From positions 1 through 25,073 of the forward strand of contig DATDUA010000001.1 of assembly GCA_035290605.1 (NCBI GenBank): a stretch of 25,073 bases of DNA. Direction: 5' to 3'. This document shows positions 3,476 to 12,210 of this stretch, piece after piece; the first letter of the stretch is position 1, and every line of letters begins with the position of its first letter. The notes below the pieces were generated by a model that worked only from the letters and a program-made list of their open reading frames with translations, had not been told where the DNA came from and made no database searches. The translations under genes and the position numbers were made by a program. This DNA comes from Candidatus Nanoarchaeia archaeon (GTDB taxonomy: Archaea; Nanobdellota; Nanobdellia; Pacearchaeales; GW2011-AR1).

Positions 3476-6151
3476 ATGAGATTTAACTTTAGAAAAATTA
3501 GTTCAGTGTTGGCAAGCGCAGTAATGATTGGAAGTACTATCGGAATCGCAGCTGCAGCAAGCGCCTATCCTGCACCATTCATTGCTGGAGGAAAGGCAGA
3601 CGTTGCAGTAGTTGTCGGTACAAGCGCAGCATCATCTGACTATCTTGCTACTATTGATGTAGGACAGAACTTGCAGGCAGAGCTCGCAAAGCAAACTGCT
3701 ACAAGCACTACAACTACAGCAAGTGCAAGTGGAGGAGACAGTGTTAATTTAGCTACATCAAGCCAGAAGCTGTTCATGAACAGCACGCTTAATGCTGCTA
3801 GAACTGTCTTGACAAAGGATAACATGCCAAATGTATTGGCAGATGGCTCTGCTTACGACAGCAGCGGAACTGAGTACAAGTACACGCAGAAGGTAACTCT
3901 ACCAACAAATACTGGAAGGCAAATCACTTTCTCAAAGAGCGGTGAAAGCATAGACCCTGAGATGATAGTAGATACTGGATTTTTATCCACAGCTATTACA
4001 ACTCTTTACAACTACACATTGACCTTTTCGAAGGTAATCAATGTCAGCAACTCAAATGTTATCGGAACAGCAACAGTAAAGATGCAGGGAGTAAGCTATA
4101 CAATCGGGGCTAACTCCGATTCTAACACCTTGTATTTGTATGGAAGTGGTGAGGCTACAACAGTAAATGGCGGAGAGACAAAAACCGTTACAGTAGATGC
4201 CAAAGAACATACTGTGGCTCTTATCGGAACATCAAGCACTACAACTGCTTCACTTGAAGTAGATGGCAGCAGAAAGTCTGTCACAAAGGGAAGCAGCTAC
4301 AAATATGGAACAGGCAGCGACCAGATTGAGGTATATATCAAAGATATATTCCATGCAGTCAGGGAAGCTGATACCCCATCCATAGATGTGCTCGTTGGAG
4401 CTAGAACACTGCACTTTGAAGACGGACAGGCTGTCAGGTATGGTGCTGATGATACAACTATCTTAAACACTATAGCTGAAGTGGCTGGTTCCGGTGGAAC
4501 CCAGCTTTCTGGAGTATCCATAGTACAGGGTGCAGATTCAGCAACAGGCGACTACGTCAAGATTGGAAAAGGCTTTGTAGACAGAGTGCTTGGAGGAGTT
4601 GAAGTGCAGTTCGCAGGAGTAGACTCTCCTTTGGACAGCACTACAAGAGACTCAGTAGTAGTAGACACAGACAATTCGTTGTCAGCAAGTGTTAAGTTCA
4701 CAAGTTATTTGGCAGGAACAGCTGGAGAAAAAACAATAACATTCGCCAAAGACTCTGATTTAGTTTCAGACAGCACGCTAAACTTTGTAAATCTTGTTAA
4801 CGCAAATAACAAGACAATACATGTTTTAGAGGGTGCAAATGCAACAATTGGAGAGTGGATTGTTGTTAATGACAATGACGAGGGAAGAATCCTTGAAGTT
4901 GTATCATTACCAGCAGGAACAAGCTCAAATGACTATATTGGTGTGAAGGATATCATAACCAATGAAGACTATAAAATGTCAACTGGATTTAACAACTACA
5001 CATCAAGCGCGTCAACAATTGGTGCTGGAGAGTACTATGCCAATGTAACAAATGGCAATTCAGACTCATCAGCATGGAGTGTCAGGTTCAAGTGGGGACC
5101 AGGAGCAAGCTACAATACAGTTGGTACACAAACAACATTGTATCCAAGGATTAAGTTAAAAGGAGGCTCATGGATGTCGTTCTTAACAAACCAGTCCGTG
5201 AACATCAGCTTAACTTATTCATTGCCTGGAATCTACCTATGGACAACATACAGAGATGGAGCTGTTCTAGCACCTACCATTTTACCTGGTACAGGAAGCG
5301 GAATAGCATACGGCTCTGTTATCTACAATGTAACAAACGGAACAGGAAGTTCAGCGTACATCGACAGATTAGCTATACCAAACTCTTGTGTATTCAACAA
5401 GACAATGGGCCCAGCTATCTTGATACAGGAAGAGAAAACCTTAAGAGATACAAACGGGCAGTCAATCTGTATCCCATTGACAAGGGTTGGAACAACAACA
5501 ATAATGCCAGGAATAAGCACACCTTCATTCTCTGAAGTGGGCTCTAATTCCAGCGGTTCTGCACCAAGTCCTTGGAGTATGGTCACAAAGACAAGTGACA
5601 CATACACAAGCCAAGCAATAGACTTGTTCGGAACACTTGTTGAAAGAAATGTTGCAACAGGAACAAACTACAAGGTAACTGTCAAGATACCAGATGACCA
5701 GATGATTGCTGATGTGCTGTTCACCGCAAAGGGTGCAACTGTCACAGCAGGAACAACATCAGGAACAGGAGTAACAGAACTTGGCTCAGTAACTGTCAAA
5801 GACAGTGAAGTGGCTCAGGTTCAGACAAAGAACTTGTTAGTTTTGGGTGGAAGCTGTATCAATACTGTAGCTGCAAAGATTCTTGGAAGTGACAATGCAA
5901 TATGTGGTGCTGACTTTACTGCCAAAACAGGCGTAGGGGCAGATCAGGCCTTATTAAAGGTCGTGAAAAATCCATATCTTACAAACGACACAACCAAGGT
6001 AGCAATGCTAGTTGCAGGATACGAAGCTGCTGACACAACAAAAGCTGCAAAATACTTGACAACAAGCAAGCCTTCAACAGAAGTTGGAGAAACTAAGTTG
6101 TCAACAAGCGGCACTGTTGCTACTGTAGCAACCGCGTCAACAACTGCTTAG
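3476..6151 (+). CDS. S-layer protein (Methanococcales/Thermococcales S_layer_N + S_layer_C type), 891 aa
   Basis: Signal peptide followed by the family N-terminal motif YPAPF..G.ADVAVVVG..AA.SD, and C-terminal motifs KNLLVLGG.CIN.VAA and LVAGYEAADT..AA. Thr/Ser/Gly-rich, at least a dozen N-x-S/T sequons, no C-terminal TM helix. Confidence 0.92.
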   Translation: MRFNFRKISSVLASAVMIGSTIGIAAAASAYPAPFIAGGKADVAVVVGTSAASSDYLATIDVGQNLQAELAKQTATSTTTTASASGGDSVNLATSSQKLFMNSTLNAARTVLTKDNMPNVLADGSAYDSSGTEYKYTQKVTLPTNTGRQITFSKSGESIDPEMIVDTGFLSTAITTLYNYTLTFSKVINVSNSNVIGTATVKMQGVSYTIGANSDSNTLYLYGSGEATTVNGGETKTVTVDAKEHTVALIGTSSTTTASLEVDGSRKSVTKGSSYKYGTGSDQIEVYIKDIFHAVREADTPSIDVLVGARTLHFEDGQAVRYGADDTTILNTIAEVAGSGGTQLSGVSIVQGADSATGDYVKIGKGFVDRVLGGVEVQFAGVDSPLDSTTRDSVVVDTDNSLSASVKFTSYLAGTAGEKTITFAKDSDLVSDSTLNFVNLVNANNKTIHVLEGANATIGEWIVVNDNDEGRILEVVSLPAGTSSNDYIGVKDIITNEDYKMSTGFNNYTSSASTIGAGEYYANVTNGNSDSSAWSVRFKWGPGASYNTVGTQTTLYPRIKLKGGSWMSFLTNQSVNISLTYSLPGIYLWTTYRDGAVLAPTILPGTGSGIAYGSVIYNVTNGTGSSAYIDRLAIPNSCVFNKTMGPAILIQEEKTLRDTNGQSICIPLTRVGTTTIMPGISTPSFSEVGSNSSGSAPSPWSMVTKTSDTYTSQAIDLFGTLVERNVATGTNYKVTVKIPDDQMIADVLFTAKGATVTAGTTSGTGVTELGSVTVKDSEVAQVQTKNLLVLGGSCINTVAAKILGSDNAICGADFTAKTGVGADQALLKVVKNPYLTNDTTKVAMLVAGYEAADTTKAAKYLTTSKPSTEVGETKLSTSGTVATVATASTTA

Positions 6152-6312: not shown

Positions 6313-6900
6313 ATGAGAAGAATAGAGGCAAAAACAGCAAAAGAGAAAAGGGAGAAGAGAAAGGGCGCTGCTATCGGGCTTTTTCTTGTCATTATTATGG
6401 TTTTAGGGACAGTGGGGTATGGCTTTTTAAGCAGGCAGGAAGCAGGAGTAAACAGCAATAAGGAGACATACAAAGGGCTGGAATTCATTATGACAGAGCA
6501 GGGCTTTTGGTGGGCAGAGATTTCAGGCTATGGCTTTTATTTCCAGCACCTGCCAAAAGAGGCAGAGAATATCTCTGTGCCTTTTGCGAGATTTGACGAG
6601 TTCAGCGGCAAGCCGCTTTATTTTGCGCTTAATGATGGAAATATAAATGCAAAGAGCGAGATTTACAGAAACCTACAGGCATTTACATTAAGGCTGCCGC
6701 AGGATGCGTGCCTGGCAGGGCAGAAATGCGATAATGCAGAGCTTCCTGAAGAGAACTGCTCAAGCAACATAATAATATTCAATGAAAGGAATGAAACAAT
6801 GGTTGAAAGGGAGGAAAACTGCATATTTATAAGCTCGCCTGCAGATGACATGACTAGGGCAGCAGACGCGTTTTTGTACAGGATACTTGGAATAATATAG
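6313..6900 (+). CDS. Membrane-anchored hypothetical protein (paralog A)
   Basis: Basic N-terminus, one TM helix (AAIGLFLVIIMVLGTVGYGFL), Cys-containing ectodomain. BRE/TATA CGAAAGCTTTATGAA at 6256-6270. Confidence 0.7.
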   Translation: MRRIEAKTAKEKREKRKGAAIGLFLVIIMVLGTVGYGFLSRQEAGVNSNKETYKGLEFIMTEQGFWWAEISGYGFYFQHLPKEAENISVPFARFDEFSGKPLYFALNDGNINAKSEIYRNLQAFTLRLPQDACLAGQKCDNAELPEENCSSNIIIFNERNETMVEREENCIFISSPADDMTRAADAFLYRILGII

Positions 6901-6928: not shown

Positions 6929-7636
6929 ATGGCCAAAAGAACAAGAAGCATGGGACAGGGCGGGAAGGCAAGTGCAAATGCTAAGACAAAGGATGCAAGC
7001 AGGGAGCTTAAAGAGGTGAATACTCTTGTTGAAAACAAGCAGGTATTTTATGTTGTGCTTGTCATGGCTTTGGTGATTATCTCTTTTTTTGTTGGTTATG
7101 TTATCTTCCAGCAGTCAAAGATAGTATATTACGAAGGATTCAGGTTTGAGAAGATAATGTATGAGAAACTTCCGCTGTATTACATAAAAATACCAATCGT
7201 GCAGCTGACAGGGCAGCTTGTAAATTACAACTTATACCTAAGGAATGACCCGAGAAAACTGGGCATAGCTGAGGGCACAGATGTGGATTTTCTAAAGAAA
7301 GAGGTTTTTATCTCCTTGAACAGCGATTTTGAGAAATGCGAGGACACAACCCTTGCCATGACAAACCTTGGAATGCTTTTTGGGGCTATGGGGCTTGAGG
7401 CAAAGGGCTCTCTTGACAACAAGGAGGAAGCAGATGCTGCGAGCAGGCCCTATATAACATGCGAAAACACAAAAAACAACACAGTAGTCTCATATAGGGT
7501 AGCAGGCAGCGGTGAAACGAGGATAGAGCAGGATGAAAACTGCTATATAATAAGCGTTGCAAACTGCGAGATACAAAAGGCAACAGAGGCATTCATAGTC
7601 AAAACGCTTTCTGACCTAAAAGACTCTCAAGAATAA
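6929..7636 (+). CDS. Membrane-anchored hypothetical protein (paralog B)
   Basis: One TM helix (VFYVVLVMALVIISFFVGYVIF). The C-terminal block ETRIEQDENCYII..AF aligns by eye with ETMVEREENCIFI..AF of paralog A. Confidence 0.7.
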   Translation: MAKRTRSMGQGGKASANAKTKDASRELKEVNTLVENKQVFYVVLVMALVIISFFVGYVIFQQSKIVYYEGFRFEKIMYEKLPLYYIKIPIVQLTGQLVNYNLYLRNDPRKLGIAEGTDVDFLKKEVFISLNSDFEKCEDTTLAMTNLGMLFGAMGLEAKGSLDNKEEADAASRPYITCENTKNNTVVSYRVAGSGETRIEQDENCYIISVANCEIQKATEAFIVKTLSDLKDSQE

Positions 7637-7650
7637 AGCATTTTGATGCC

Positions 7651-8280
7651 TTATTTATTCTTGCCAAGCTTGATTCTTAAAAATTCAATGATTGCAGGCA
7701 GAAGCGAGATAATGATTATCAGCAGGATTACGAGGGCGAGATTTTTCTGGACAAAGCTAAGTGTGCCGAAGTAAAACCCAGCAAACAGAAAGATAAAAAC
7801 CCACAGAATGCCGCCGAAGATGTTATAGAAGAGAAATCTTGCATAATTCATCCTGCCTATTCCTGCAACAAACGGGGCAAATGTCCTTATAATCGGAATA
7901 AACCTTGCAATCACTATTGTTTTTCCGCCGTGCTTCTCATAGAATTCATGCGCCCTGTCAAAATACTTCCTGCTGAATAATCTTGATTTTTTAAAAAACC
8001 TGGCGCCAAGATAGTGCCCTATCCAGTAGTTGGCAGAGTCGCCGAGAATTGCTGCAAGCGAAAGCAGGGCAAACAGCAAGAAAACATTAAGCAGCCCCTG
8101 CGCAGCGAGGGTGCCTGAAACAAAAATCAGCGAGTCTCCTGGAAGCAGCGGAGCAAGCACAATGCCTGTTTCAAGGAATATTATGGCAAAAAGAATAAGA
8201 TAGGTGCCCACCCCATAATTCTGAATAACAAAAGCAATGTTCCTGTCAAGATTTGCAAAAAAGCTTATGATGCCTGCCAT
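7651..8280 (-). CDS. dedA: DedA family (VTT domain) membrane protein
   Basis: Family motifs IIFLETG...LPGDSL, AILGDSANYWIG, YEKHGGKTIVIARFIPIIRTFAPFVAG and FLFYN..GGILW. Confidence 0.93.
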   Translation of the reverse strand: MAGIISFFANLDRNIAFVIQNYGVGTYLILFAIIFLETGIVLAPLLPGDSLIFVSGTLAAQGLLNVFLLFALLSLAAILGDSANYWIGHYLGARFFKKSRLFSRKYFDRAHEFYEKHGGKTIVIARFIPIIRTFAPFVAGIGRMNYARFLFYNIFGGILWVFIFLFAGFYFGTLSFVQKNLALVILLIIIISLLPAIIEFLRIKLGKNK

Positions 8281-8831
8281 TATCTCCTCTTCCTCTTTTG
8301 AGGATTTATAGATTTATAAACAAATCGCAAGTCAGAATAGCCCGGGAATTCTTTCACCCTGAAGAGCCAGGCAGACAGGAACCATATGGCAACAACAAGC
8401 AGTGTGCTTAGAACATTCCAGAGCAGGCTGTGAACAATGTCAAAATAGGCATAGTTGTTTAGGTAAAGCACAGAGAGCACAACTATCCTGATTATATTAA
8501 GCAGGAGAAATGCGGCAAATGAAAAAAGCAGGGATAAAGCCCTTGTTTTCAGCTTTATGCCCCTTGTTGCAAGGTTCAGTGCAAATAACAAAAAGTATGC
8601 AAAGCCTGCAATGCATGCATCTACAAGCTCTATGCCAAATCCTGAATTGCCTGAATATATCATTACAATATTTCCTGAAAGCGAGGCGCTGTAAAAAAGA
8701 TTCAGAATCCAAAAAACAGGGTAGATTGTCAAAGGCGCAAAGGCAAGATAAAAAATGCCGAGGTTGTTCAGGGCAGAAACAAGAACCAAAGCATATCTTG
8801 CTAAAACATCAAAAACCTCATTTATTTTCAT
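8280..8831 (-). CDS. Archaeosortase/exosortase family membrane transpeptidase (compact type I recall as pacearchaeosortase)
   Basis: Multi-TM protein with the catalytic-type Cys (ELVDACIAG), Arg (LLNIIRIVVL) and His (YFDIVH) in exosortase order. Its stop overlaps the dedA start (TAATG). Confidence 0.82.
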   Translation of the reverse strand: MKINEVFDVLARYALVLVSALNNLGIFYLAFAPLTIYPVFWILNLFYSASLSGNIVMIYSGNSGFGIELVDACIAGFAYFLLFALNLATRGIKLKTRALSLLFSFAAFLLLNIIRIVVLSVLYLNNYAYFDIVHSLLWNVLSTLLVVAIWFLSAWLFRVKEFPGYSDLRFVYKSINPQKRKRR

Positions 8832-8844
8832 TTCCCTGAAAAGA

Positions 8845-8860
8845 GAAAGCTATTTAAATA
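8845..8860. promoter_or_regulatory. Bidirectional promoter with palindromic TATA element
   Basis: TATTTAAATA (8851-8860) is a perfect palindrome centred about 24 bp from both ATG 8831 (minus) and ATG 8879 (plus). GAAAGC BRE-like sequence on the plus side. Confidence 0.7.
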
Positions 8861-8878
8861 TTTTTAGCATGTAGGATT

Positions 8879-9499
8879 ATGGAAAAAGCCAGAAAAAGCA
8901 TTAAATGGATTGTTGCTGCAGCAGCATTCTATGTGGTTGCAATTGCGCTGCTTGTTCTTGGATTTTACTATGATGCTTATGTTTCTGAGTTTATAGCCTC
9001 AAACAGGCAGCCATACCTGAATGAATTTATGAGGATAATAAGCTTTTTAGGGGATTGGTATATTATTCTGATTATTATAAGCATTATCTTTATCTTTCAC
9101 AAGCTAAAAAGAAGGCTGGTTTTTGCCTCGTGGCTGAGCATTCTTGCAAGCGGCCTGATTGTTTATGCAATAAAGTTTTTCTTTGTAAGGGAGAGGCCTT
9201 TCGGGGCTCTCGGCATAGAGAATCTTATTGAGGCAGAGGGAAGCAGCTTTCCCTCAGGGCATGCGGCTGCTGCCTTTTCAGCAGTGCCGCTGATTGGCAG
9301 GATTAAAAAATTAAGGCATGTGTGGCTGGCTTTCTCAATCCTCGTTGCATTCTCAAGAATATACCTCGGAGTTCACTACCTGAGCGATGTGGCTGCAGGC
9401 GCCCTGATTGGCTACACCCTTGGGGCAATATTTCTTGCAATTGAGCACAAAGCAAAGTTTGGAAAGAGAATTCTCGAGCTTATAAAAAGATATTATTAA
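8879..9499 (+). CDS. PAP2 family membrane phosphatase (polyprenyl-diphosphate phosphatase-like)
   Basis: The three PAP2 motifs K.FFVRERP, SFPSGH and SRIYLGVHYLSDV, in a multi-TM protein. Confidence 0.92.
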   Translation: MEKARKSIKWIVAAAAFYVVAIALLVLGFYYDAYVSEFIASNRQPYLNEFMRIISFLGDWYIILIIISIIFIFHKLKRRLVFASWLSILASGLIVYAIKFFFVRERPFGALGIENLIEAEGSSFPSGHAAAAFSAVPLIGRIKKLRHVWLAFSILVAFSRIYLGVHYLSDVAAGALIGYTLGAIFLAIEHKAKFGKRILELIKRYY

Positions 9500-9530
9500 G
9501 GGAAGAACGCCACCTGCTAACGCATTAAGC

Positions 9531-9989
9531 CTAAGAAAAAATACTTTTAAGCCAGCTGATAATCTTCTGGAACAGGGTTAGCTCTTTTTCAGGCTCACTG
9601 CTGACAATCCTATAATTCCCATCAAGAAATGTGCCTCCATTGCACTCGTCCCCACCAAAATGAATGTCTCCTTCAATAGCCTTGGCGTTTGAAGAATATC
9701 CTGTCAGATTATACAGCTTAACAGATATCTCTTTGCCAGCAGGATATAGCTCATAACAGCTTCTATCGCCATCCTCGCGGACAACAGATACATTGCTTAT
9801 ATTCAGCCACACCGAGTAAGAAGCAGGTATAATCCTATTGCAGTTGATATATGCTGCATGATAGGTTGAATTTATGACATCTGCACTGATTCTGCAGGTT
9901 GGGCTTGGGGCGGCCATAACAGCAGAGGCTGTTCCAATCAAGGATACAATTAACAAGAAAGTTAATGGAATTGCTAATTGCTGTTTCAT
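9531..9989 (-). CDS. Small secreted Cys-containing protein with amphipathic C-terminal helix
   Basis: ATG 9989 lies 22-23 nt downstream of a TTTAAG TATA box. Signal peptide MKQQLAIPLTFLLIVSLIGTASA, four Cys, ends LFQKIISWLKSIFS. Confidence 0.7.
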   Translation of the reverse strand: MKQQLAIPLTFLLIVSLIGTASAVMAAPSPTCRISADVINSTYHAAYINCNRIIPASYSVWLNISNVSVVREDGDRSCYELYPAGKEISVKLYNLTGYSSNAKAIEGDIHFGGDECNGGTFLDGNYRIVSSEPEKELTLFQKIISWLKSIFS

Positions 9990-10046
9990 GAACAATTTAG
10001 CCAGAGCTTGCTTAAATATCTATTGATTATACTAAAGGACATTGAA

Positions 10047-10150: not shown

Positions 10151-12136
10151 CTAAACCACACTTACTTTAGGCTTTGCCCTTGCGACAGAAACGAGTATTA
10201 TCAGCACAACAAGCACAACAATCAGTGTTACAAGTATCCAGACTGCCTTGTTGCTTGTTATATTCTCTCCAAGAGATGATGCGAATGCAGATAGTGTTGA
10301 TTTCTGGATTGTAACTGCAAGGGACTGCTCCTTAACCTGTGAGTCATATGTTATCTTTGCCTTGAATATCTTCTCTCCGGATGCGTCCCCGTCTATCTTG
10401 AAATATAAGTAAGCGCTTCCGCTCTCTCCCTTCTCAAGTGTTAGAGTAGATGGCTCAACCCTGTCAAGTTTTGCCCAGTCTTCATAACCAGACGCTGAGA
10501 TGCTGTATGTTGTCTCTGTGTCCTTAGGGTTTGTCAGGGTGACTTTTAGCTTCATTGTGCTGCCTGCAATAGCATTCTCATAGCCCTCTGCCAGAGAGGC
10601 TGATATTGAAACATCCCTTGAAACAGAAGCAGTGCACTGCCCTGAAACCTTCAGCTGCTCTGTGAATGTGCTTGTCAGGTCATAGCTGTCATCATCCTCG
10701 TCATAATCATAGTATGCCTTGAATGTCAGCGTGTAGTTCTGCTCTGTTGAATTTTTAGGCACGCTTATGCTGAATGTGACAACCTCTGAATCTCCCTCGT
10801 CAAGAAGGAATGAATTTGAGTTCTGGCTTATTCCAAGCTCTTTGTTGTAAATGCTTAAATAGACTTTGTCCTCGTCCCTTGTCCCTATGTTGTATGCCTT
10901 TGCTGTTATGTCAACGCTCTCGCCGCAATTAACATATTCAGGAATATTTATGCTCTGGAGCGTCATCTCTCTTGACTCCTTGTCTATGTTTATTGCCCTG
11001 TAAAATTCAGAGCCTATTCTGTCTGTGCACTGCCCTCTTTCATCGCTGTCATAAAATGCCCTTACATACAGCCTGTAATTCCTGTCTTTTATGTCAACAG
11101 GCACATTTATCGTGAATTCAACATCCTTTGACCTTCCGTCCCCGACTGAAACTGTTTTTTCGTCCTTGTCCAAATCAACAAACTCCTTATCCTGAGGGTC
11201 ATACAACCCTATCTGGACTGTAATGTCCTCTTCATCAATGCCGTTGTTCCTTACGCTTACTTCAATATCAACTGAATCAAGAGGCTTCCAATCCCAGTCT
11301 GTTTCAGAGCTTTTGTCCTGCAGGCTCAATATCTCCACACTTGTCCCGTTCTTGCCATATTTGCAGTAATCGCTCACTACTTTAAGGCTTGTTGTGGCAG
11401 TTGTGCCTGATGATGAATTTGCCGTTATTGTTGTTGTGTAATCCTCAAGATAGAGATTTGAAGGAATGTCTGATGTTATGTTTATTGTCCTTGAGGCGCC
11501 TTTTGAGAGGTCAAAAAGGTTTGATGAGAATGCCAGGGTTGCCTGCCTTCCTGCAGAGTCCCTTATTGAAGCTGCATCATATGACAGGTTTATGCTTGTA
11601 AAGTCAACATTTCCTGTATTTGTTATTGTGAAAGAGCTGTTGTTCTGCGCCCTGTTTAGCTCTGCAGGCGAGGTTAATGACAATGAAGATGTTGAGTTTA
11701 CTGTCAGGCTAATGGATAATTGGGCAGTTAGAGAAGTGCCGTTTGTTCCTGATGCAGTTATAGTGCCTGCATATGTCCCCGGCTGCTGGTATGAAGGGAC
11801 AGCTATTGTTGCGCTGAGCACAGATGATGTTGAATTATACTGTATATTAGTAATATTAGAAGGAAGCGAAACATTTCCTGAGCTGATAGTGTAAGAGCCT
11901 GTTGTAAGCACGCTTGAGCTGAAGCTTATATTTGTTATGTTCTGGTTTGAAAGCGTGTTGTTAAGGAAAAATGAGATTGCGCCTGATGTTGCATGGTTTA
12001 ATGAAAGAGAGTATGAAGTCTGGTTGAATATAAGCTCATTTGCAGCGCTTGCTAAAGACGCAGACAGAATAAATATTCCAAACAACATCAACGCTGCCAG
12101 AACAAAATGCAAATTCTCGTGTGTTTTAGACTTCAT
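10151..12136 (-). CDS. Ig-like multi-domain, C-terminally anchored cell-surface protein (putative S-layer-associated)
   Basis: ATG 12136 preferred. Signal peptide, repeated beta-sandwich motifs (F.ITNTGN, EVSVRNNG, AKAYNIG, KVTLTNP), many N-x-S/T sequons, C-terminal TM helix with a basic tail. TATA TTTATAAA at 12165-12172. Confidence 0.75.
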   Translation of the reverse strand: MKSKTHENLHFVLAALMLFGIFILSASLASAANELIFNQTSYSLSLNHATSGAISFFLNNTLSNQNITNISFSSSVLTTGSYTISSGNVSLPSNITNIQYNSTSSVLSATIAVPSYQQPGTYAGTITASGTNGTSLTAQLSISLTVNSTSSLSLTSPAELNRAQNNSSFTITNTGNVDFTSINLSYDAASIRDSAGRQATLAFSSNLFDLSKGASRTINITSDIPSNLYLEDYTTTITANSSSGTTATTSLKVVSDYCKYGKNGTSVEILSLQDKSSETDWDWKPLDSVDIEVSVRNNGIDEEDITVQIGLYDPQDKEFVDLDKDEKTVSVGDGRSKDVEFTINVPVDIKDRNYRLYVRAFYDSDERGQCTDRIGSEFYRAINIDKESREMTLQSINIPEYVNCGESVDITAKAYNIGTRDEDKVYLSIYNKELGISQNSNSFLLDEGDSEVVTFSISVPKNSTEQNYTLTFKAYYDYDEDDDSYDLTSTFTEQLKVSGQCTASVSRDVSISASLAEGYENAIAGSTMKLKVTLTNPKDTETTYSISASGYEDWAKLDRVEPSTLTLEKGESGSAYLYFKIDGDASGEKIFKAKITYDSQVKEQSLAVTIQKSTLSAFASSLGENITSNKAVWILVTLIVVLVVLIILVSVARAKPKVSVV

Positions 12137-12210
12137 TTTTGTTACGATTTTATAATTACGATGGTTTATAAATATTTCTATTCTACAAAACATATAAGAT
12201 TACGGGCAAT

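Follow-up and report, generated by a model that had tools for sequence, protein, structure and literature searches.

Within a 25,073-nt stretch of DNA from a Candidatus Nanoarchaeia archaeon (contig DATDUA010000001.1 of a 712,551-bp genome, G000; the whole stretch is referred to here as the window) lies an archaeosortase-type gene, followed by a gene for a DedA-family protein and faced by a divergent gene for a PAP2 lipid-phosphate phosphatase (Table 1). Between the sortase and PAP2 start codons is a single palindromic TATA element, whose symmetry is kept in related loci only where the second gene is present. The surrounding stretch is best explained as the centre of a Pacearchaeota surface-protein sorting island. 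On balance, we consider it probable that one symmetric promoter co-expresses the sortase–DedA operon and PAP2, that PAP2 and DedA recycle the lipid carrier used in glycosylation, and that the sortase matures the main sequon-rich surface protein. The sortase system itself is known; new are its lipid-gene partners, an interchangeable gene slot beside the sortase and the selected symmetry of the promoter.

Identified by an NCBIfam search, the sortase matches model NF033505, 'pacearchaeosortase' (2e-56; 190.7 bits, cut-off 80; model positions 2–166 of 167 aligned); a Pfam search gave no match for it. Encoded 1.3 kb away is a protein matching NF033506 (3.8e-121, 405.8 bits, cut-off 110), referred to here as the PACE-CTERM protein, which ends in a C-terminal transmembrane (TM) helix and a basic tail and carries 18 N-x-S/T sequons in its 680 residues, placing it at the 97.9th percentile of 420 open reading frames (ORFs) of at least 200 aa. 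The original prediction, made from the window's letters alone, had correctly recognized an enzyme of the archaeosortase type, but missed that it belongs to this catalogued pair of enzyme and putative substrate. NF033505 is present in 374 of the 401 genomes sampled from the window's order, including 83 of the 86 of high quality. The conserved Cys, Arg and His of the exosortase/archaeosortase superfamily are here C73, R115 and H134, invariant in all 113 aligned sortase homologues, and we take their catalytic role to be that of the corresponding residues in ArtA. The ArtA catalytic residue is named as Cys-173 in a report that also describes ArtA-dependent lipid anchoring in Haloferax (PMC7157517), in agreement with the background on which the original prediction drew. 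By analogy, C-terminal cleavage of the PACE-CTERM protein by the sortase and its attachment to lipid are putative. Solved structures hold no sequence relative of the sortase at E ≤ 1.

The two lipid genes are assigned by the same searches. The window DedA matches PF09335 (4.6e-23, 82.4 bits) and, in NCBIfam, the E. coli-type DedA model NF008102 (238.4 bits, cut-off 236), and the phosphatase matches PF01569 (2.9e-20, 72.8 bits).

The architecture of the spacer proved to be as originally described. The sortase stop and dedA start codons have one base in common (TAATG, 8278–8282, minus strand), the gap between the sortase and the divergent PAP2 gene is 47 bp (8832–8878), and near its midpoint is the palindrome TATTTAAATA, which 19 nt separate from the start codon of the sortase and 18 nt from that of PAP2. 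Formed by two TATTTAAA boxes on opposite strands that overlap by 6 bp, the palindrome places each box about 21 nt before its own ATG, and TATA-like 8-mers across the genome peak 21 nt before the ATG of long ORFs (range 19–22 nt). The element thus reads as two canonical promoters of predicted leaderless transcripts (TATTTAAA-N21-ATG) sharing their central bases, a reading suggested by the TATA-to-ATG distance, which fits leaderless-transcript geometry. The 10-mer occurs 12 times in the genome, against about four copies expected from base composition.

Conservation of this arrangement was followed through 112 neighbourhood loci, the window's own excluded: 30 with 1.5-kb flanks around the best NF033505 matches, the next 80 with 4-kb flanks, and two from named records. 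The first 110 are the top-scoring of 383 NF033505 matches and not a random sample; their ORFs were scored by hidden Markov models made from the window proteins and the first matches of these. All 48 relatives with a divergent PAP2 gene within 200 bp have the palindrome, 45 exactly and 3 with one mismatch, and in all 48 it is centred. Among the 64 loci lacking PAP2, it is exact in 5, has one mismatch in 21 and is absent from 38. The distance from palindrome to ATG is 19 nt on both sides in 29 of the 48 linked loci, 19/19 is among the options in five more, and the others are off by 1–2 nt. Raw sortase–PAP2 gaps were also measured between longest ORFs, with the window's locus included: of 49 loci, 23 have a gap of exactly 48 bp and 31 one of 47–50 bp. 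From start codon to start codon the distance is 48 bp in the window and 49 bp in most relatives. The PAP2-linked loci cover 29 genus codes.

Five representatives from outside the family of the window, but within its order, were compared, and all but one have a divergent sortase–PAP2 pair. In family f4 the spacer is again 48 bp and the palindrome exact, families f5 and f9 keep both pair and palindrome, the core between the paired genes of f3 is imperfect, and in f8 the sortase is without a PAP2 partner. A locus from family f7 (L093) has the divergent pair and an exact palindrome in a called gap of 37 bp. The pair is kept in six of the seven families examined, over a range in which the proteins have diverged to about 35% identity.

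Alignment of the upstream regions separates the two states. Where PAP2 is missing, the consensus before the sortase is AAA.TATTTAAA-N21-ATG; where it is present, the consensus in the sortase direction is ttAAAT-TATTTAAATA-.ATTTCC, with the core and A-rich flanks conserved at about 80–97% and the 19-nt spacers at about 30–60%. Retention of the symmetry only where there is a second gene argues for selection on both directions, and co-regulation from one palindromic TATA, proposed in the original prediction, is strongly backed by this conservation (48 of 48 PAP2-linked loci, against 5 of 64 exact among the PAP2-less). Two other explanations of the palindrome were considered and rejected. It is not the generic TATA of the genome, since the generic motif is non-palindromic and PAP2-less sortase promoters lose the outer TA. 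Nor is a shared TATA the rule for divergent genes of this genome: the modal gap between divergent ORFs is about 100 bp, and of 153 candidate pairs only about 13 are 40–56 bp apart. Several of these short gaps have a single central TATA and constitute a minority class. One other short divergent gap lies in the window itself (24179–24231, 53 bp, between ORFs 23828–24178 on the minus strand and 24232–24882 on the plus strand); it has a central TATA-like run, GATTTATAAG, and may be another shared-TATA promoter.

Bidirectional promoters of this layout have precedents in Pyrococcus and Thermococcus. In Pyrococcus furiosus, a factor B recognition element (BRE) on each side of a TATA lies midway between start sites about 50 bp apart, a 49-bp case having been confirmed in vitro (PMC6640164), and in Thermococcus kodakarensis divergent start sites 52 bp apart flank a shared TATA (bioRxiv 10.1101/2020.01.31.928960). 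As described there, the likeness to the present spacer lies in a single symmetric TATA at the midpoint with BRE-like blocks on both sides; the distances of about 49–52 bp refer to initiation points in those species, and here the 48–49 bp are between start codons, not start sites, the 49 bp at loci with the 48-bp spacer agreeing with that range. The published Pyrococcus analysis concerns head-to-tail promoters, whose divergent product is antisense RNA assumed by its authors to be non-functional, whereas both products here are predicted to be leaderless protein-coding mRNAs. The present case is also known from sequence alone, and differs in that the symmetry is retained only with the second gene.

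The phosphatase has intact PAP2 motifs: K99-x6-RP107 (KFFFVRERP), PSGH at 125–128 and SR-x5-H-x3-D at 159–170 (SRIYLGVHYLSD). Hydropathy and the positive-inside rule suggest that these face outward. Its closest solved relatives are LpxE (6ebu, 2.6e-17) and YodM/PgpB (5jki, 3.1e-09), and its best NCBIfam matches are undecaprenyl-diphosphatases, namely SepP (61.9 bits, cut-off 250) and PRK11837 (48.2 bits, cut-off 229). It is the sole PAP2 found in its genome, in single copy, and a search of the same genome for BacA gave no match.

The strongest functional evidence obtained is the complementary distribution of PAP2 and BacA. PF01569 is found in 267 of the 401 genomes, nearly always in single copy, and BacA (PF02673) in 193. 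Counting PAP2 matches above the Pfam cut-off only, 184 genomes have PAP2 alone, 130 BacA alone, 63 both and 24 neither (odds ratio 0.063, the significance of which is overstated by the kinship of the genomes). BacA occurs in 4 of the 47 genomes with a sortase-adjacent PAP2, compared with 35 of the 54 without. These 54 comprise 27 with BacA and no PAP2, 14 with PAP2 elsewhere and no BacA, 5 with PAP2 elsewhere and BacA, 5 with neither, and 3 with a weak PAP2 match and BacA. Where present, PAP2 is mostly beside the sortase (47 adjacent, against 19 elsewhere plus the 3 weak matches). Because PAP2 and BacA substitute for each other across genomes, dephosphorylation of polyprenyl diphosphate in these cells is most likely the task of PAP2.

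Linkage of the lipid genes to the sortase is real, but facultative. Of the 108 loci whose flank reaches at least 700 bp, 46 have DedA as the next gene after the sortase, and PAP2 is divergently upstream in 48 of 102 (in one of them 1.6 kb away). Spacing between sortase and DedA is −4 to +4 bp in 33 of 40 interpretable loci, and such tight spacing is compatible with translational coupling. The original prediction had treated the three genes as one module, and here the neighbourhoods disagree: in the 99 loci with both flanks visible, all three are together in 22, the minority state by the yardstick that the original prediction itself had set, with DedA only in 21, PAP2 only in 25 and neither in 31. 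The trio is therefore not an obligate module, and its two lipid genes come and go independently; fused DedA–PAP2 proteins are reported in bacteria, as the original prediction had stated, in a preprint by Todor, and the obligate co-occurrence that fusion entails is not seen at these loci. Across the wider sample, PF01569 is absent from the matches in 134 of the 401 genomes searched and PF09335 from those in 89.

The position downstream of the sortase behaves as a slot with alternative occupants. Among the 108 loci with enough flank, it holds DedA only in 45, a PF06695 gene only in 36, both in 1 and neither in 26, and is thus filled by DedA of either of two clades or by PF06695 in 82. Slot type, too, is independent of PAP2. 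A DedA tree was made from 48 linked DedAs and 20 unlinked ones hand-picked from the PF09335 list, so that unlinked members of clade B are possible. Clade A (13 rows, support 100/98) is of the E. coli DedA type, with 6 linked members, the window's included, and 7 unlinked, at 49–62% identity to the window DedA. Clade B has 42 rows, all linked, at 24–32% identity, and its best NCBIfam match is the undecaprenyl phosphate (UndP) transporter UptA, at 121–150 bits against a cut-off of 250. Well-supported (starred) branches of this tree force at least two changes of linked state.

The PF06695 genes (for example L004:1018-1497, encoding 158 aa) lie on the opposite strand, co-directional with the neighbouring gene up235. 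All eight of those tested match PF06695 'Sm_multidrug_ex' (1.8e-39 to 3.2e-26), and the window has no such match. As the slot of families f4, f5 and f9 also holds PF06695, this family may be the ancestral occupant. A manual check found no PF09335 match in 18 of the 35 genomes with PF06695 alone in the slot. A preprint places PF06695 in the DedA superfamily.

The window DedA has the residues E37/D49 and R126/R132, with spacings of 12 and 6 equal to those of E39/D51 and R130/R136 in YghB. An acidic pair in re-entrant helix 1 and a basic pair in re-entrant helix 2 are given as the hallmark of COG0586 UndP flippases in the Todor preprint, which describes COG0586 DedA proteins as such flippases and so agrees with the original prediction that some DedA proteins flip UndP. 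On these residues, the window DedA is a candidate polyprenyl-phosphate flippase of the COG0586 type.

Genes of the pathway that such a flippase would serve were sought in five genomes, those of the window (G000), a congener (G115) and three near-complete relatives (G009, G015 and G021). AglB/STT3 is present in all five and a GPT-type transferase (PF00953) in four, with none found in G000, which is 66% complete. In three genomes, no more than about 3 kb separates AglB from a GPT-type Glycos_transf_4 gene (G015 C7:8832-10892, G021 C1:86401-88418 and G115 C13:1007-5609), which suggests a small N-glycosylation cluster. GPT-type enzymes build glycans on a diphosphate-linked carrier. The polyprenyl diphosphate that would be left outside after transfer by AglB is the substrate to be expected for an outward-facing PAP2.

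The capacity to make polyprenyl carriers varies within the family, given that a strong cis-prenyltransferase match (PF01255, 1.1e-74) occurs in G000 (C14:492-1154) and G115 (C11:21889-22551) and none was found in G009, G015 or G021. DUF368 was found in none of the five. A search for GGGPS gave no match in G000, G115, G009 or G015 and one weak match in G021, and a CDP-alcohol phosphatidyltransferase of the PssA type was likewise found only in G021 among the five. The statement in the original prediction that Pacearchaeota lack lipid biosynthesis accordingly stands in part: it agrees with the missing GGGPS and CDP-alcohol transferase matches, but not with the cis-prenyltransferase of G000.

These observations can be drawn together as a mechanism. 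A palindrome bound by TATA-binding protein, with an A-rich BRE on either side, would drive transcription in both directions. Leftward, it would give a leaderless sortase–dedA mRNA, with dedA translationally coupled through TAATG, and rightward a leaderless PAP2 mRNA. PAP2, with its active site predicted to face outward and usually the only such phosphatase, would convert the carrier diphosphate remaining after AglB transfer, of dolichyl or undecaprenyl type, to the monophosphate. DedA, with its acidic and basic hallmark pairs, would then return the monophosphate to the inner leaflet. The common promoter would in this way tie carrier recycling to the output of the sortase that presumably matures the PACE-CTERM protein. 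The sequences directly show which genes these are, that their motifs are intact, how the promoter is laid out and conserved, that linkage is facultative and that PAP2 and BacA are complementary; start sites, substrates, flipping direction and any connection with glycosylation are inferred from these. The idea of lipid-carrier recycling, first put forward in the original prediction, gains from the PAP2/BacA complementarity, AglB and the GPT-type transferase, and loses its obligate module.

The closest known counterpart is bacterial UndP recycling, in which BacA/UppP or a PAP2 phosphatase acts with a flippase, UptA (a DedA) or PopT (DUF368). The likeness lies in the complementary PAP2 and BacA, in COG0586-type DedAs with their hallmark residues, and in the reported fusions of DedA to PAP2 in bacteria. 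It differs in that the present host is an archaeon without peptidoglycan, in which the carrier would serve AglB-dependent N-glycosylation, in that DUF368 was not found in the five genomes searched and scores fall under equivalog cut-offs, and in that the genes here are tied to a protein-sorting enzyme.

Several observations weigh against carrier recycling under a common promoter. DedA and PAP2 occur beside the sortase without any association between them (odds ratio 1.3, p = 0.55, 99 loci), and nearly a third of those loci (31) have neither gene. On the sortase tree, which is weakly resolved, at least 20 changes are needed for PAP2 adjacency and at least 38 for slot state; linkage this labile is explained equally well by selection and by losses from an ancestral gene order. 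Kinship among the genomes makes Fisher p-values overstate the case; an independent-pairs test of PAP2 against DedA yielded three supported pairs on starred branches, too few to use. BacA is not beside the sortase where coordinates were compared (as in G197 and G124), so carrier recycling does not require a place next to the sortase. The window PAP2 is far below the SepP and YbjG equivalog cut-offs, a match at superfamily level only, and the window DedA, at 58.3 bits against the UptA model NF052604 (cut-off 250), does not reach equivalog level either. Genome G015, which is 100% complete and has the sortase, gave no PF09335 or DUF368 match (PF06695 was not searched there). When shallow alignments of PF06695 and of DedA clade B were compared profile to profile, no link appeared (probability 0.4%, E = 0.13), and the kinship of the two rests on the preprint, not confirmed here. 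A search for RNA runs covering positions 7600–9600 of the window listed none, and the start sites and direction of transcription at the spacer are themselves predictions.

An account in which PAP2 and the slot protein prepare, flip or clear the lipid that receives the cleaved PACE-CTERM protein we consider unlikely. It would mirror the provision of archaetidylethanolamine to ArtA by PssA and PssD. In Methanosarcina, artA adjoins pssA and pssD, and ArtA-dependent lipidation in Haloferax needs PssA and PssD (PMC7157517); there, an archaeosortase gene stands beside membrane-lipid genes, and synteny correctly foretold functional dependence. In the present island, the sortase adjoins genes for a lipid-phosphate phosphatase and for DedA-superfamily proteins in place of lipid-headgroup synthases, and a search of five genomes for the PssA-type family gave a match in G021 only. 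In favour of the account, neither that family nor GGGPS was found in G000, G115, G009 or G015, so that these cells could not themselves make the usual acceptor lipid. Three DedA-superfamily lineages hold the slot beside the sortase. Archaetidic acid is noted on the Haloferax S-layer protein (PMC7157517), and PAP2 enzymes use lipids of the phosphatidic-acid type. The PAP2/BacA complementarity, however, indicates a polyprenyl-diphosphate substrate. BacA is not known to act on anchor lipids. The sortase is more widespread than PAP2 (374 genomes against only 267), and the hallmark residues and best matches of the DedAs are those of UndP flippases.

An absence of any functional coupling is a further possibility, to which we give a similarly low standing: the gene order would be ancestral in very compact genomes, the shared TATA a by-product of compaction, and PAP2 and DedA general housekeeping proteins of the membrane. 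Consistent with it are the facultative and labile linkage, with the numbers of state changes given above, the replacement of PAP2 by BacA at unlinked sites, and the other divergent pairs 40–56 bp apart with a central TATA, that at 24179–24231 among them. Archaeal shared-TATA promoters are moreover common and often give non-functional transcripts (PMC6640164). Against it, the two DedA clades and PF06695 are nearly mutually exclusive, both being present in only 1 of 82 filled slots, so inheritance alone is insufficient. A PAP2 that exists is beside the sortase in most genomes, and the pair is kept in six of seven families despite its divergence.

A more adventurous account, which we regard as distinctly improbable, treats the sortase-adjacent position as a slot with a function, open to any lipid flippase of the DedA superfamily, the uncharacterised PF06695 family among them. 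Genes for archaetidylethanolamine being lacking in the genomes tested, the sortase substrate would instead be joined to a lipid of the polyprenyl- or dolichyl-phosphate type, which PAP2 would generate and the slot protein position. Were this so, it would supply a first function for PF06695 and a new kind of protein lipid anchor. Highly improbable is that the palindrome is an operator for a dimeric transcription regulator with the promoters elsewhere: a conserved perfect 10-bp palindrome has the classic look of an operator, but PAP2-less loci, with their broken palindrome, keep the same TATTTAAA core 21 nt upstream of the sortase start codon, TATA-like 8-mers peak at that distance genome-wide, a 47–48 bp gap is too small for two more promoters, and the layout fits the Pyrococcus BRE–TATA–BRE motif in the form in which it was reported.

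Around the sortase genes is a conserved island, with the order up195 >, up235 >, [slot], < sortase, [PAP2 >], < PACE-CTERM. The most constant sortase neighbour is up235, present in 107 of the 112 loci, followed by a PACE-CTERM homologue (103) and up195 (92). Both up proteins are type-II-like, with one TM helix and an acidic ectodomain each, and neither gave a match in Pfam or NCBIfam. An AlphaFold (AF2) model of up235 has a mean confidence (pLDDT) of 88.9; compared with the PDB by Foldseek, it retrieved nothing at E ≤ 0.001. By VIA-align, at scores that are middling, residues ~110–231 align with glycoside hydrolases, in their N-terminal domains (Z up to 9.5), and with the domain by which the S-layer protein of Methanococcus voltae is anchored in the cell wall (9fsa_A; Z 8.7, r.m.s.d. 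of 2.7 Å, 104 of 135 residues). The modelled likeness to an S-layer anchoring domain would be a lead only.

Table 1. Features of the sorting island in the window, in order of position.
Feature	Position	Strand	Family or remarks
up195, single-pass membrane protein, paralogue of up235	6313–6900	+	convergent on dedA; island core
up235, single-pass membrane protein, paralogue of up195	6929–7636	+	convergent on dedA; island core
DedA-family protein, 209 aa	7651–8280	-	PF09335; E. coli DedA-like clade A
Pacearchaeosortase, 183 aa	8280–8831	-	NF033505; leads putative sortase–dedA transcript
Divergent intergenic spacer, 47 bp	8832–8878	.	predicted BRE–TATA–BRE bidirectional promoter, two leaderless mRNAs
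Palindrome TATTTAAATA	8851–8860	.	two overlapping TATTTAAA boxes, one on each strand
PAP2 lipid-phosphate phosphatase, 206 aa	8879–9499	+	PF01569
Small ORF, 154 aa, between PAP2 and PACE-CTERM genes	9531–9995	-	hydrophobic N-terminal segment
PACE-CTERM putative S-layer protein, 680 aa, presumed sortase substrate	10151–12193	-	NF033506

The small ORF between the PAP2 and PACE-CTERM genes encodes several cysteines and 4 sequons; family searches gave no match, and among the loci examined a homologue occurs only in the 95%-identical locus L003, so that its membership in the sorting system is uncertain. At its position, other loci hold unrelated small ORFs of 80–145 aa. A few loci have other genes inserted between PACE-CTERM and the sortase or PAP2 (L056:1949-3229, L091:5268-6305, L112:4586-6223 and L090:4506-5156), namely Fic/DOC-domain genes in two loci, an S8 subtilase and an HhH-GPD glycosylase. 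Just upstream of up195 in the window is a gene for an 891-aa protein (3476–6151, plus strand) that matches S_layer_C (PF05124, 4.6e-08) and is without a C-terminal TM helix. Since this match adjoins up195, the island may carry two different surface-layer proteins, this one and the PACE-CTERM protein. The remaining window genes are archaeal housekeeping genes, encoding FtsZ, SepF, L11, Spt5, aIF5A and others.

As catalogued, the NF033505/NF033506 system is the same as that found here, with both models matched well above their cut-offs, enzyme and putative substrate as neighbours, and the Cys, Arg and His invariant. In the NCBIfam search output the two models carry names only ('pacearchaeosortase' and 'putative S-layer protein'), to which the present analysis adds the DedA-superfamily slot, the PAP2 gene and the promoter. 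A literature search, in which co-mentions of archaeosortase and DedA were judged by their titles, those listed being on Haloferax, did not find the lipid-gene partners, the slot or the promoter symmetry in print, nor the term 'pacearchaeosortase' in the literature searched.

Pacearchaeota are uncultured, host-dependent archaea, and carrier recycling coupled to sorting offers a testable link between surface-protein sorting, recycling of the N-glycosylation carrier and promoter architecture in this group. The complementarity of PAP2 and BacA gives most genomes of the order a probable polyprenyl-diphosphate phosphatase, and the interchangeable slot makes the widespread and uncharacterised PF06695 family a candidate for lipid flipping. 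For bidirectional promoters of archaea, the 48-bp spacer amounts to a natural experiment, which argues that shared-TATA promoters can be selected for co-expression, beyond transcriptional noise.

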